Shown: piece by piece, positions 21,001 through 36,071 of the stretch
Layout of the letters: each line of letters starts with the position of its first letter
How positions within the stretch are numbered: position 1 is the stretch's first letter
Assembly: GCA_016218805.1 (NCBI GenBank)
Contig: JACRCW010000142.1
Location: 1-36,071 of the forward strand
Source of the DNA: Deltaproteobacteria bacterium
GTDB taxonomy: Bacteria; Myxococcota; JACRCW01
Direction of reading: 5' to 3'
DNA length: 36,071 bases
Made by a program: the position numbers

Positions 21001-24000
21001 CGAGGTCCTGCGCGTGCTGGACTCCATCCAGCTCACCACGCGGTACAAGGTGGCCACGCCGGCCAACTGGAAGCAGGGGGATGACGTCATCATTGCCGGA
21101 TCAGTGAGTGACGAAGAGGCGAGAAAGCAGTTCCCCGGCGGCTGGCAGGCGCCCACGCCGTACCTGCGCATTGTCCACCCGCCGGCGTAGGGCCTAGAAC
21201 GGCACGTCGTCGCTCGGAATATCGCGACGCGCCAACCACGCTCCATCCAGTTCCACCAGCTGCCTCGGCGCGACACCGAGCGTCCTGACGGCCTGCCCGC
21301 TGGGCTGGTTCGCGTCCACGTAGGTCATCACCAGGCAGCCATCGGGGCCCACTTCGGCAAACCACTCCTCGCATACCGCCCATGCGCGCTCCCGCACGCC
21401 CTTGGTCATGTGCGGCGCCGTATATACGCCCGGTGCGACCTCGAGCATGCAGGACGCGAGGAACCCGCGGAAACGCTCGGGCACGTTGCGCGTGACCACC
21501 ACCGTCATGCTCATGGCGCCTGCGCCTCCAGTAGCGCCTTGATCCGGTCGATCATTGCCGGAACCACCGCTTCGTCGCGGAGCATCCGGCCCGCGGCCCG
21601 CCGGGCGGTGCGCTCCAGCGGTTCGCGAGCATCCGACTGGTGCTGTTTCACGGCCCGGAACGCCGCGGGCAGCGCCACGGTCTCGCGAAAGAGGTCGGCG
21701 ATGTCCAGGCAGAAGCTGTTGGCGGAATCCTCGTGGATGAAGCCCAACTGCGGAATCGTGGATGTCGCCGCAACAGCAATCATCGCTGCGGACTTGATGG
21801 CGGTGGACGCGTGGTTGAGCGCCTGGTTCACCTTGTCTGCGGCCTCCGGATCTTCGCGGTCGTAGGCGCGACGCGTCCAGTCCACCCCGTGCTCCTGGGC
21901 GAGGCGCTTGTACATCGTCTTCACGCGCGCGCCTTCGATGCCGCGGAGCACCGCAATGTCGGTGGAAGGAAGGACTTCTCCGAGGCGCCACGCGTACATC
22001 CGCCGCGCCAGGGTCACCCGTCTCTCCTTGTCCGCCCACGCCTCCACCTGCCTGCGGGCGAGAGCGGACTCGTCTGAACCGAAGGGCATGGATGCGTAGA
22101 ACCGGACGCCGTCATCGCCAGTGGCCACCAGCCCCGTGCCATGCCGCGCCATCAGGCGGAGTGCGTCGTGACTGACCGTAGTACCCGGGCCCATCAGGAA
22201 ATTGGTGATTGTCTGGAACGGCAACGCGTAGTCACCTGACGGGAGTTGGCCGCCACCCGGCGTCTTGAAGCGGAGGGTGCCGTCTTCCACGTAGAGGTTG
22301 CCGTGGGTCAGCCAGATGCAGCCGTGGCGGTCCGAGTGCGGAATGCGGGCCGTTTCAATCCCCAGCCGCCCCTTCAGCAAGACATCCTCGGGGGAACCGG
22401 CACCAGCATTCCGAACCCGAACGCGCGGTGGCGCCCGACGCCGCGCGTCAGCAACGCACGGAACGCGGCAGAGTCCTTCACCTCAAGCACACCTTCCATG
22501 TGGACGTCCGGCCGCTCCAACCGGTGACCGGGGCGGTTGCCCGCCTTGTCCGGCAACTCGCGCCGGTACAGGCGTTCACCCAGGATGCCGGTCAACTTGA
22601 ATGCCCTGACCGCCACCCCGTCGTGCCAGGGCTCGCGCGCCTGGCCTGGCCTGCTGCCAAGCTGCAACTCGAACCACTTCCGGTACACGTCGTCCTTGGA
22701 GGGGACGGGCTTGCCCATCTCGGTGGCGCGCAGGCGTGCGTGCAGCCAGGCGTCCATCTCGCGGCTGACCTCACGCTCGCGGCCGGTCTTCTTGCTCTTG
22801 TGCGGGGGCCGCGGGTTCTTCCCCTTCATCACGCTCCGCACAATCGGGCACGCGCGCAGCTCGAAGCCAACCAGGTCACCCACCTCAAACGCAGGCACCG
22901 GGCGGGACTTCAACTCGCCCAGGTCAACGAGGTCCACTGTGTCGGGGTTGGCGTACTTGGACGCATGCTCCCGGAGCGAGTCATCCGGCAGCGGACTGTA
23001 CGCCCATACTTCAAGGTGAGACGTGGAGCGCGCCCTCGGGTTCACGCGAAACGGCACCGGCGCGTGGTCCTGCCACACCGCGGCAAGCGCGCCGTGCACG
23101 GCGTACCCGGTGTCCACGTCGCGGCCCTGGCGCTTGGCCAGGGACATCAGGAGGTCCTTGCGGACGCCGAGACGAACCAGGTTGAGCGGCGTCATGGGGC
23201 GCTCCGATGGGTCACGATGCCGCGTGCGCGCAATCCGTCCGCGCAGAACTCGAGGACATCGCCCCAGTTCAGCGAACGCCCTCCGGCTCCAACTGTCGCG
23301 CTCGCGAAGAACTCCGGGGAGGACAGACGCTGGCCGAGGCCACCGATGGCAATGACGGGTTTGAAATCCACGATGACATGGACGCCGTCATCGTAGTCGA
23401 TTCCAACGGTCAGCTCGGCGCCATGGAGTTGCATCGACCTGATGCGGGTGTTCATGGCCGGGAGAGCGATGTTGGATGCACACATGGTCTATCTCCCTCA
23501 CGAAGCCGCGGGCTGTTTCAACATCCCGTGTCGCATCATGCGCCGCCCCACGTGGACATGGTTGCGCCAATCGCGCTCGTCAGTGACCGGCACGATCTCG
23601 TTGGGTTCCGGGGCGCCCTCTGCGCCGTCAAACCACCATGCTGGCACGGGCCACCCTGCCCCCGAGCGTTTTGGCATGGGGACCGACGCAAGAGCAGCCA
23701 GGAGGTGGCCGGTAGCCTTGCCGACAATAATTGGCCCGCCGGGCAGGCAGCACTTTCGACCAAGGAACAGAGGGCGCGCCGGGTAGCGGATCGCGTCAGC
23801 GACTTCCGGCGTCGATGGACCACCACCGCCGGTCAGGGTCAGGGCCACCGTGTGCACGGAATCGGCCCAGTAGTCGCGGAACCGCTCGGCCGTCTCGTGC
23901 CTCTTGTCGCGCACCACCGGTCGCCCCCAGGTGGTCCAAGCTTCGGACATGAAGTCCTGTGCCAGGTTCGCGGTCTGGTAATCCGTGATGCGCGTGCCCA

Positions 24001-27000
24001 ACACGTCCGCCCTCGATGCGTACTGGATGCGCTCCTGCAGCGCGTCGAGCCGCCCGAACTCGCGGTGGTCCCAGCCCAGCGCGTTGGCGAGCAACCCTGT
24101 CAACATGGAGAGCGCTGGAAACGGCTGGATCACGCCGAACTGGTCGACGGTCGGCGCACCGAAGCTCACCAGGGGCGCGTCAAATCTGAGCAGCAGCACG
24201 TTCCCCATCATCCATTCCCGGCTTCGCAGGTGACCTGCGCCGCCACCCAATTGGCAAGTTCCCCCATCCCGTGTGCGTTGCCCTTCGGGACGCTGAGACT
24301 GGTCGCAAGGTCACTTGAACGCCGGACCATGAGCGCGCGGCCGCGCGGGGGCTCGAAGTTCGCATCGGAGTCCAGGACCTCCTCCCTCAGCGCCTTGTAT
24401 GTCCGCTCGAGCAGCTCGCCCGCCTTCTCGTCGGGGCGAACGGGCGACAGGAACGCATTGGCAAACGTCCTCGGCTGGGCGTCACCGGCTTCGGCCATCA
24501 GCAAGTGGGCCGCGGCATGTGGCGCCGTGGAGCCGAGCTTGGCACCGGGGGTTACGGTCGCCAGCATGTGAGTGAGGTTGTGCAACACCCGCCCCGCGAG
24601 CGCAGCGTCGCCGCTGAGGTTGTCCACGAGCAGGCGAACGTCCACCGCCACGTACGAATAGAACAGGCCGCTGGTCAGCTCCTGCGCGTTGATGTGATCG
24701 CTCCCGGCGTCGCCGTGTTCGAGGTTGCTCATGGCGCTGAAGTAGTCGCTCTCCGCCTGTTCTCCGTGCACGGTGAACGCGTGCGCGACGTGAATGGCGG
24801 CGTCCCCGCGTGCGAAGAGATCGCCGGTGACCATGCGGCCGAACAGCGCGGCGCTGAGGCCCATGTTGGCATGCGATGACTGCCGGAGGCCCTTCTTGCG
24901 CCTGTCCTCTTGGCCGGGGGCCTTCATCGCCTCCAAGTTCTTGGCGTTATTCTTGTCTTTGAGCCAGCCCAGAAGGCGGTCGGCGGTCTTCTCGGCAGGC
25001 GGCCACTCAGCGGGCTTCTCCTTCCCCCCCTGCGCGAGCTCGCGCGCCAAGCTAAGCAGGAACGTCACTTCGGCGCGCCCCAGGACGACGACCTCGGCGG
25101 TCTTGATTTCGCCGGGGGGCTCGCTCTCGGCCACCACCGGCGCTACGGCCGCCCTTGGCTTTCCACTTGTGCGGGCGGGTTTGTCCGCCACCGACGCTTC
25201 CGGCCCATCCTCAGGCGCTTGTTCCGGGTCGACCTGATAGTCCTCCTTCGTCTCTTCGGGCTCGTCCTTCCCCGTCAGGAGCTTCTGCGCCCGCTTGGTG
25301 CGCTTGTCCGCCCCCTTCTTGGCCGTGTCCGTCCCGACCAAGAGCAACGCCGCAACGTGCGCTGCCGCGTGGCGTGCGTTCTCCAGCGGCGCGCCCTCCG
25401 CGACAAGCGGGTCGACGATCTTCTGCTGGAAGATGAGTCGCGAGCGCAGCGAATCATGCTCGGGCACGGTGTCCGCGTTCGTTCCCTTCAGGCCCTCCAC
25501 GCGCCACAACGAGTGCTCGTCGGCATAGGTCCGCCAGTGCTTCTTCAGGCACTGGGAAGAGATCCTGGTCCGCATCACGCCGCCGAACGGCATCCGCTTG
25601 GCGAAGCCGGCATCGTCGCGGTTCAAGAGGCTCGCCGGGTACGACGTCAGCACGTGGAACTGGATGAAACGCGCCTGCTGGTTCTCGGTCATCGGGTCCG
25701 CCTCTCCCGAGCCGGCCGCGCCGGCTCCGTATCCAGATTCAAAACCGTTCGGGGCCACGCCACGCCCTCTTGCAGGACCGCCCTCACCGAGCGCGCAGAG
25801 GGGTCAAGATGGACCCCGCCGCTGGCCAACCAGTGAAACGGACCATGCGAATGCGGCCGCCGGGTCAGCGCGTCAAGTTCCGGCGCATCTTTCAGGAGCC
25901 ACGCCTTCAGCCAGCGCACCTTCTGCAGGATCTCGGCGGCATTCGAGGTGCCGGCCGGGTGAACCTCGACCCAGACGGCAACCTCCTTCCGCCCGTCGGC
26001 CACGTAGCCGAACCCGTAGTCCCAGCGTGCCGCGTTGGGCCTGGCCTCCCGCGTCGCGCGATCCAAGTCCAGGCTACCCGTGATCCGTCTCCGTCCGGTG
26101 CGAACGTGGGCGCTGTCCGGCCCGAGCGCCCGCAACCCCGGCTTGGTGCGGTCTCTCACCGAAGGCGTCGCATCCACGGCTTGGACGAACTCGGACGCCA
26201 CGCTCACGCCCCCTGCCGCCACGCGCGGGCCGCCACGCGGGAAACCACATCGCTGGTGCTGGAGGCGAACCCAGTCAGGCCGCCCCAGGTGCCCTCCCGT
26301 TCGTCGATGGCACCGGGGTCCAGCGCTGAGATGTCCTGGACGTGTCCATCCTGACCGAAGTGGTGAACGCGGATGTCCAGTTCCAGCATGCGCTGGGCGG
26401 CCGGCGTCATTCCGGCCGCGGCGGGTTCATCAAACAACGCCAGCACGTCCCTCGCCACGCCACCCTTCTGACGAAACACGTGTACCGCCCAGAGGAGGTC
26501 CACCACCGTCGACGAATGGGTGGAAAGACAAACGCGGTACCCGCGGTTCAACAACTCAAGCAGCAGCACCAGGCAGGTCGTGATGCCCCTCGGGTGCAAG
26601 CCCGCCTCCAACTCCTCGAGCACCACCCAGCTCACGTCATCCAGACGGCGCTTCTTCTTGCTGGGCAGCAACTCCAGGAGCGCGAGCAGCATCGGAACAA
26701 ACTCGCGCTGCCCAGTGGACCAAGCCGTCACGGGCAACCCGGGCGCCCCGGCGCGCCCAAGCATCAGGCGCTTGCGGCCATTGCGCTCCACGTTCAGCGA
26801 AAAGCCGCCAAAGATCTCCCGCGACAGCGCCTTCCTCACCGGCTCCTTGAGGCGCTGCTCCCGCGGGAACAGGACATCCCCGGCACGCGCGAGTTGCTCC
26901 GCCACCACCCGCACGCGCTCGCTGAACTCGCGCAGCACGTACGGATCACCCGCGCTGAACTCGCCGAACGGCTTAGGCCAGCCCTGCGTCAGTGACAGGA

Positions 27001-36000: not shown

Positions 36001-36071
36001 ATGGACCCCTGTCCACCACATCGCCAGGGCTGCTTGAGCCGGCTCCCCCGCGCACGCGGGGATGGACCCGA

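Follow-up and report, generated by a model that had tools for sequence, protein, structure and literature searches.

Two ATPase-nuclease gene pairs of candidate-defence type and a lone DUF2442 gene inserted in a type I-E cas operon of a Deltaproteobacteria bacterium

The stretch of DNA analysed here (the window, 36,071 nt) is a contig of a Deltaproteobacteria bacterium that carries a type I-E CRISPR-Cas locus (Table 1). Its gene order was found to be as initially annotated, with 13 frames, all on the minus strand and none with an internal stop. The genes cas3, cas8e, cas11e, cas7, cas5, cas6e, cas1 and cas2 are present in the canonical type I-E order, and this otherwise intact operon holds inserts at the cas3/cas8e, cse2/cas7 and cas5/cas6 joints. 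Of the three nested inserts of the initial annotation, two lie between Cascade subunit genes; the first sits between cas3 and cas8e. The HD, Walker A, DEVH, SAT and QRxGR motifs of Cas3 are intact, and from such intact cas motifs a type I-E interference and adaptation machinery is predicted. Cas7e is long, compared with 408-419 aa in five full-length relatives. The 13-repeat array was recovered, with revised coordinates; it has the 29-nt palindromic repeats and 32-nt spacers of type I-E, its spacers are unique at this array end, and 10 further repeats lie at the end of another contig (C97). Its orientation is presumed from the type I-E repeat shape.

Table 1. Genes and other features of the type I-E locus
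Feature	Position	Strand	Basis or remark
CRISPR array, 13 identical 29-nt repeats, 12 spacers, cut by contig end	35309..36069	+	
cas3, HD nuclease-helicase, 892 aa	31340..34018	-	Pfam Cas3_HD, PADLOC Cas3e
Decayed copy of first 14 codons of cas8e (putative insertion scar)	31311..31353	-	14-nt overlap with cas3 stop
g03290, ABC-type ATPase of pair 1, 417 aa	30005..31258	-	AAA_15/AAA_21
g03289, PD-(D/E)xK-type nuclease partner of pair 1 (model), 212 aa	29374..30012	-	Family remotely like PDC-M29B
cas8e (cse1)	27858..29387	-	PADLOC Cas8e, E 2.1e-138
cse2 (cas11e)	27346..27861	-	Pfam CRISPR_Cse2
g03286, PDC-M56A ABC-type ATPase, 381 aa	26204..27349	-	PADLOC, E 9.8e-126, positions 3-379 of 382
g03285, PDC-M56B, restriction-endonuclease-like fold (model)	25689..26207	-	PADLOC, E 2e-40
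cas7e, 494 aa, loops enlarged	24208..25692	-	Pfam/PADLOC family matches
cas5e	23498..24211	-	Family matches
g03282, lone DUF2442 (DhiA-type antitoxin family)	23192..23485	-	Atlas feature matches DUF2442 30/30; structure TM 0.80
cas6e	22374..23195	-	Family matches; Gly-rich loop intact
cas1e	21511..22380	-	Family matches
cas2e	21194..21514	-	Family matches

The probable source run has a single contig that covers positions 21200-35200 without a difference and at even depth. In a second run from the same study, contigs bridge cas3/g03290, g03285/cas7 together with g03286, and g03282 on either side; among the run contigs examined, no joint skipped an insert. We therefore see no sign of an assembly artefact. 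As for the short joints listed, one side of each comprises 20-26 letters, and no insert boundary coincides with any of them.

Consecutive genes overlap at most joints, as had been reported: by 4 nt at cas8e/cse2, cse2/g03286, g03286/g03285, g03285/cas7, cas7/cas5 and g03282/cas6, by 8 nt at g03290/g03289 and by 14 nt at g03289/cas8e. Two joints are gaps instead, of 81 nt from cas3 to g03290 and of 12 nt from cas5 to g03282, and the 81-nt gap is the only room for separate control. Purine runs resembling ribosome sites precede cas8e, cas7 and cas6.

The first insert is a gene pair (pair 1). The ATPase g03290 carries the Walker A, signature, Walker B with D-loop, and H-loop motifs of the ABC family; its match to NsnB/AriA-like ATPases was obtained again (E 1e-17, confined to a short stretch), and its GC3 of 0.71 places it in the lowest 1% of 843 called host genes. 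Both g03289 and g03282 had been left without a family, which no longer holds: modelling gives g03289 a nuclease fold, and g03282 belongs to DUF2442. The g03289 model is weak (pLDDT 55.9) and its best fold match is McrC (Z 7.9, rmsd 3.5, 122 aligned). In its family, E80 is conserved in 53 of 55 rows and K82 in 50; PDC-M29B is matched by 13 of the 55 members, g03289 not being among them, and g03289 itself has no PADLOC match. In all four related loci the ATPase gene precedes the nuclease gene in non-cas surroundings, the ATPase being shortened in one (L129). The closest relative of pair 1, at 60% identity, lies in a genome without a match to this Cas8e.

A decayed copy of the start of cas8e lies beside the cas3 stop. 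It is identical to the true start at 28 of 43 nt, is the top non-self match along the operon (the runner-up scores 24), and its score was reached in 1 of 1000 shuffles. To judge from these sequences, the cas3/cas8e junction is present in two diverged copies, one on each side of insert 1, which we read as an insertion scar. No such duplication was found at insert 2 (863 of 1000 shuffles scored at least as high), and that at insert 3 is marginal (32 of 1000). The arrangement looks old and kept, since identity between the scar copies has fallen to 65% with every gene still open.

The second insert is a PDC-M56 pair, its M56A and M56B matches being adjacent and on the same strand; both family calls, like that of Cas8e, were reproduced. 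The ABC motifs of g03286 are intact. g03285 carries a D...ExH motif with a distal invariant Lys (D61, E79, H81 and K94 are invariant in 63 of 63 rows), and its model (pLDDT 93.7) best matches Card1 (Z 7.0, rmsd 3.7, 128 aligned). PDC-M56 pairs elsewhere had been described as lying away from cas genes, and wider sampling of other genomes and metagenome loci bears this out. The Cas proteins of the window were matched in none of 80 PDC-M56 metagenome loci (39 clusters, only 13 of them with 3 kb on both sides), no Cas family occurred among 108 ORFs around those 13 clusters or in the scanned ORFs flanking PDC-M56 in 20 other genomes of the phylum, and no CRISPR array was seen in 105 PDC-M56 loci. 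One pair (L052) sits inside a nuo respiratory operon, in the order nuoL-nuoM-[insert]-nuoM-nuoN, and another (L100) inside a DISARM-like cluster. The same nuo operon holds a second, toxin-antitoxin-like insert.

Both ATPases thus have the ABC motifs, and the top folds of both partners are PD-(D/E)xK nucleases with middling Z-scores (7.9 and 7.0) and conserved D/E, E, and K or H residues. Homology between the two nuclease families was undetectable by profile comparison (probability 0.5). Both nuclease genes extend about 10-13 codons beyond the family median end, reaching the next cas start. The GC3 values of the three inserts (0.71, 0.84 and 0.75) differ, which fits separate origins.

The third insert, g03282, has a weak Pfam match (E 0.009). 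DhiTA is a DUF4160/DUF2442 toxin-antitoxin (PMC8198452); g03282 has the DUF2442 in common with it and differs in standing without an adjoining toxin partner. No DUF4160 toxin gene lies directly upstream, where the narrow spacing to cas5 leaves no room for one.

At the two Cascade-subunit joints that hold inserts here, none of the 19 and none of the 18 comparison loci has an insert, so the inserted genes came later. A scan of the genome contigs gave no Cas8e relative, and a phylum search repeated from a second centre yielded the nine matches of the first and no new one. In the Salinibacter pSR118 I-E locus, of the same Cas8e clade, a DUF6364 gene and a PIN gene (antitoxin-PIN-like) lie between cas3 and casA (cas8e). 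The 'hypothetical' genes at this position in two further loci (L109, L110) proved to be second halves of a split cas3, and were rejected as cargo.

The initial annotation took the nesting to be undescribed. This stands for inserts between I-E Cascade subunit genes, of which our literature search found no published case (nor did the available portions of PMC12231136, PMC13223576 and bioRxiv 10.1101/2024.10.29.618823 contain one), and falls for cargo inside type I cas operons at large. Such defence cargo has been published for I-C, I-B and I-F operons as CRISIS (Shu et al., bioRxiv 10.1101/2024.12.27.630466), and in type I-D loci the space between cas3 and the gene for the large subunit holds toxin-antitoxin genes among other cargo (Shmakov et al., bioRxiv 10.1101/2023.03.03.530964). 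In the I-D loci and pSR118 the cargo keeps to the cas3 boundary, whereas here two more inserts interrupt the Cascade genes themselves, and no mini-array was seen. What is unusual, in this one genome, is insertion between the genes for Cascade subunits, and a total of three inserts in a single operon.

Among known systems, HEC-02 pairs an ABC ATPase with a NERD PD-(D/E)xK nuclease, is anti-phage and needs both genes. Our pairs share with HEC-02 and PDC-M29 the two-gene plan of ABC ATPase and PD-(D/E)xK effector, but the ATPase matches are partial and weak (HEC-02A, E 1e-11 and 6e-10; PDC-M29A, E 3e-10) and HEC-02B is not matched; for pair 1, no full-length PDC-M29 or HEC-02 profile match covers both genes, those of the ATPase spanning about 60-140 residues. 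The second pair matches both PADLOC PDC-M56 models near full length, adjacent and in the same order. PDCs are defence candidates defined by where they occur, embedded within other defence systems (Payne et al., bioRxiv 10.1101/2024.01.29.577857). Erlang, whose ATPase and partner jointly degrade phage DNA, sits in I-C operons (Shu et al.); its likeness to our pairs, an ATPase and a nuclease in a cas operon, is drawn from its description.

The models and motifs support viewing the pairs as ABC ATPase-nuclease cassettes of candidate-defence type that were inserted later. This much of the earlier proposal, that such modules had settled in the operon on the cas strand, is retained, and its Cascade link is not. 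We consider it fairly probable that the inserts are autonomous cassettes hitchhiking on a shared cas transcript; among embedding explanations, Payne et al. name both hitchhiking and a 'genomic sink'. Three passenger insertions would have landed separately in the working operon, and would have been tolerated because every cas start downstream, with its ribosome site, was kept. Each pair, likely of anti-phage type, would be a self-contained innate defence in which the ABC ATPase senses a phage product and then activates its presumed DNase partner to cut DNA, either the phage's or, as abortive infection, the host's. With nuclease genes that read on into the downstream start and ribosome sites, the pairs would be coupled to cas8e and cas7, use the cas promoter and move with the locus, and would be neither Cascade subunits nor under guide-RNA control. 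They need no Cascade, since relatives of both occur without nearby cas genes.

Against hitchhiking, three inserts in one operon, two at otherwise empty joints, are a lot for chance alone, and PDC-M56 is more closely coupled here than it usually is: of 25 PDC-M56 clusters with both neighbours, only 3 have on either side a neighbour that shares the strand and lies within 60 nt. The seeming age and retention of the arrangement, to judge by the drifted scar, speak against it too. The middling fold scores and the weak g03289 model also count against it, as does the candidate status of both defences. If hitchhiking is nevertheless the right reading, a tightly coupled Cascade row can absorb defence cassettes unbroken, 'guilt by embedding' extends to type I-E, and PDC-M56 and the PDC-M29-like pair gain first mechanistic leads as ATPase plus PD-(D/E)xK nuclease. 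The 13-kb operon is a compact test bed for a question that Payne et al. raise: does embedding reflect a neutral sink, or does it provide a functional back-up?

The tight translational coupling within the Cascade row and the enlarged Cas7 loops could also mean that one or both pairs monitor Cascade or anti-CRISPR proteins at the protein level and kill the cell on CRISPR failure. Anti-defence proteins are a frequent trigger of ABC ATPase defences, PrrC guarding the type I restriction system EcoprrI (Payne et al.), and Erlang offers an ATPase-DNase pair within I-C operons. However, the arrangement is seen in one genome only, the insert proteins have no fusion or extra domain pointing to Cascade, and the nearest relative of pair 1 does without this Cas8e; we consider such guarding unlikely. 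By analogy with PrrC, domesticated guards coupled to Cas8e and Cas7 output might fire when an anti-CRISPR binds or removes Cascade, as an RNA-guide-independent anti-anti-CRISPR, which we think decidedly doubtful. The initial suggestion that the pairs sense or back up Cascade failure was not supported: no crRNA-like guide or target was found, and the relatives lie away from cas genes, also in housekeeping operons.

The lone antitoxin-family gene resembles a remnant, the length of Cas7 has drifted, and a weakly used operon would tolerate insertions. On these grounds the pairs might be inert or costly passengers that do little in a locus under relaxed selection, with Cascade expression or stoichiometry impaired. 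This seems improbable with every cas and insert frame open, catalytic motifs present, purine runs kept before cas8e, cas7 and cas6, and identical repeats with unique spacers in the array.

Innate defence genes directly after cas3 within a type I cas operon recall CRISIS; under CRISIS/CreTA-type control, a crRNA-like guide with Cascade would repress a promoter before g03290, and loss of Cascade would free the pair. The 81-nt gap could house this promoter, the cas3/cas8e joint is enriched for I-E mini-arrays (Shmakov et al.), and I-C CRISIS cargo occupies the same joint. CRISIS has been described for I-C, with I-B and I-F candidates, 'I-E' being absent from the main text of Shu et al., and each has a solitary repeat guide and a target promoter, neither of which was found here. 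No solitary repeat or mini-array lies beside the cargo: repeat-like copies in 19600-35308 did not exceed shuffles (best 19/29, null 18-21), a scan that very degenerate repeats could escape, and the place after the cargo where CRISIS has its repeat is taken up by the g03289/cas8e overlap, with no intergenic room. Neither was a PAM-flanked partial target seen in a cargo promoter, and none of the 21 spacers at hand, some others lying beyond the contig ends, matches any of the four stretches examined through its seed. A cas8e remnant takes up about 30 nt of the gap, and the longest word that the gap shares with other non-coding stretches is 8 nt. Neither the sigma-70 nor the terminator scan rose above background, and no sigma-70 consensus promoter was found (a weak test in a 70% GC genome). 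With neither a regulatory mini-repeat nor a self-aimed spacer, such control is very improbable. A 12-nt match of spacer 35704-35735 to the 3' end of cas3 is mismatched at seed positions 2-4, and was taken as chance.

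The operon reads cas3, g03290, g03289, cas8e, cse2, g03286, g03285, cas7, cas5, g03282, cas6, cas1 and cas2, as the initial annotation had proposed, and all 13 genes are open throughout and lie on the minus strand. The overlaps of 4-14 nt reported for its joints were recovered at most of them, the exceptions being cas3/g03290 and cas5/g03282, where gaps of 81 and 12 nt were found. The motifs that we take to mark Cas3, Cas6 and Cas1 were present in the window's proteins. The CRISPR array of 13 repeats was likewise confirmed; its repeats are identical and it continues past the contig end, with 10 further repeats at the end of contig C97 of the same genome. 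A single contig of the probable source run covered 21200-35200 with zero differences, three insert joints were bridged by contigs from another run by the same study, and no joint skipping an insert was observed among contigs of the sequencing runs checked. Gross assembly error is excluded; all four runs come from one study and do not amount to independent occurrences.

Both ATPases, g03286 and g03290, carry Walker A, the ABC signature, Walker B with D-loop, and the H-loop. Profiles assigned g03286/g03285 (pair 2) almost over their full length to PDC-M56A/B, a candidate defence family. The M56B structure model (63 rows, pLDDT 93.7) was closest to proteins of the restriction-endonuclease fold such as Card1 and Can2 (Z 7.0, rmsd 3.7, 128 aligned), and D61, E79, H81 and K94 are invariant in its alignment. 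For g03289, the partner of g03290 in pair 1, 9 close relatives and, by profile search, 81 representatives were found. Its model is weak (pLDDT 55.9), with McrC as best fold match (Z 7.9, rmsd 3.5, 122 aligned), followed by Can1, PaqCI and Can2; both Z values fall in the middling range of the tool's own scale. The g03289 family retains a PD...ExK motif whose first site is D in 48 of 55 rows and E in the other 7, g03289 itself having E, and 13 of the 55 members weakly matched PDC-M29B. Taken jointly, fold and motif predict that g03289 and M56B are nucleases. The third insert, g03282, had been listed without a family and was assigned to DUF2442; according to the accessible text of PMC8198452 and PMC12065111 this is the antitoxin family of DhiTA, but g03282 has no toxin partner beside it.

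Relatives of the window's Cas8e were sought in 400 other genomes sampled from the phylum and found in nine, all with adjacent cas genes (two cut by contig ends); plasmid loci were added from 5 of 6 records of one set and 6 of 27 further records of another. Cargo was observed at the cas3/cas8e joint in one of 17 loci having it (Salinibacter pSR118, DUF6364 and PIN), and at cse2/cas7 and cas5/cas6 in none of 19 and 18, in agreement with the claim that related operons lack these inserts. From sequence comparison, the inserts are later additions to the cas operon. A scar marks insert 1: the last 14 nt of cas3 form the beginning of a degenerate copy of the cas8e start. This copy is identical to the true start at 28 of 43 nt (binomial p 6e-5, start and stop codons left out), and no non-self match on the operon strand is better. 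At the far end of the insert, the tail of g03289 is similar to the cas3 end in relatives, and its overlap with cas8e is the same 14 nt. Insert 1 (pair 1) is therefore flanked on each side by a copy of the old junction, a layout that arose either from duplication at insertion or from recombination of two diverged operons. The two nuclease genes extend about 10-13 codons past their family's median end and stop exactly at the following cas start, which we interpret as read-through that kept coupling. GC3 is 0.71 in g03290, 0.75 in g03282 and 0.84 in g03286; the cas genes lie at 0.80-0.87, and the median for the host is 0.89.

PDC-M56 pairs had been said to occur elsewhere without cas neighbours, and this held. 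The best 80 of 163 confirmed metagenome stretches, many of them short, gave no match to the window's Cas proteins; they form 39 clusters, and the 108 ORFs around the 13 that have 3 kb of flank on each side included no Cas protein family. A partial match to a CARF-galactosidase fusion model near a PDC-M56 cluster was rejected, the protein being a glycoside hydrolase. Nearest neighbours (96 of 120 representatives scanned) were mainly housekeeping genes, though restriction-modification, toxin-antitoxin and helicase genes also occurred among them. M56B was present in 20 of 400 other genomes of the phylum, with no Cas family among the flanking ORFs scanned (50 of 83 in one scan); no CRISPR array was detected in 105 loci, the window serving as positive control. 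One comparison locus, L052, is an NADH dehydrogenase (respiratory) operon with two nested inserts, one being the PDC-M56 pair: nuoL, a small toxin-antitoxin-like pair, nuoM, DUF2283, M56A, M56B, nuoM, nuoN. In another (L100) the pair lies between DrmMI-like and DruE-like genes. Pair 1 relatives keep the ATPase-nuclease order in four loci with non-cas surroundings (L026, L128, L129, L130). Two observations speak against a plain sink for insertions: packing as tight on both sides was seen in only 3 of 25 M56 clusters, and three inserts in a single operon have no equal in the comparison set.

We consider it probable that the two pairs are autonomous sensor-nuclease defences hitchhiking on the cas transcript. 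The ATPase would detect a phage product and then switch on the nuclease, by analogy with HEC-02, Erlang and PARIS-like systems as described in the accessible text of Payne et al. (10.1101/2024.01.29.577857) and Shu et al. (10.1101/2024.12.27.630466). It is unlikely that the pairs guard Cascade at the protein level; the functional tie to Cascade suggested earlier was not supported, PDC-M56 and pair 1 relatives occurring in non-cas surroundings. Inert cargo in a CRISPR locus under relaxed selection is similarly doubtful. CRISIS-type control by Cascade and a guide, which in the accessible text of Shu et al. depends on a solitary repeat together with a target site in the promoter of the cargo, is very improbable: no repeat-like sequence rose above shuffled background in 19600-35308 (very degenerate guides could escape), none of the 21 assembled spacers (others may have escaped assembly) had a seed match in the four stretches tested, and the 81-nt gap shared no word longer than 8 nt with other non-coding stretches.

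This type I-E operon is an instance of defence embedding, in a single genome. A search of mainly open literature, with few subscription papers, showed no published cargo between the subunit genes of an I-E Cascade, nor did the accessible text of 10.1101/2024.10.29.618823, PMC12231136 and PMC13223576 give any; CRISIS data, PDC tables and Shmakov locus files (bioRxiv supplements) lay outside this comparison and may list such loci. As far as their accessible text goes, Shmakov et al. list subtypes enriched in toxin-antitoxin, possibly including I-E, and 10.1101/2023.03.10.532045 covers CreR in I-E. The embedding is real and unusual in degree, but known in kind.

Positions of additional features in the window and in comparison DNA
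Feature	Sequence	Position	Observation
Palindromes	window	34115-34365	five imperfect copies, 20-28 nt, upstream of cas3
230-aa gene	window	34440-35132	between array leader and cas3; unnamed helical family common in Myxococcota; missing from related loci
Cas7	window	24208-25692	494 aa (408-419 aa in five relatives); low-complexity loops enlarged
261-aa protein	window	19656-20441	near cas operon end; HNH-associated repeats and sigma-70 region 4 domain
Far part of array and SNF2 helicase gene (1433 aa)	C97 (L131)	5509-11274	array ends next to the gene
DUF6364 + PIN pair	L108 (NZ_CP030363.1)	7183-7935	between cas3 and casA, Salinibacter I-E operon
I-E Cascade row	L111 (NZ_CP155757.1)	1-14001	Sphingomonas plasmid; same clade; directly after DISARM-like methylase, drmA, DUF1998; no cas3 in this stretch
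nuo operon	L052	1159-11441	

Two palindrome copies were tested and had no further match in the genome at 3 mismatches. The palindromes have only a central 8-mer in common with the CRISPR repeat, and they are possibly operator sites or a structured leader.
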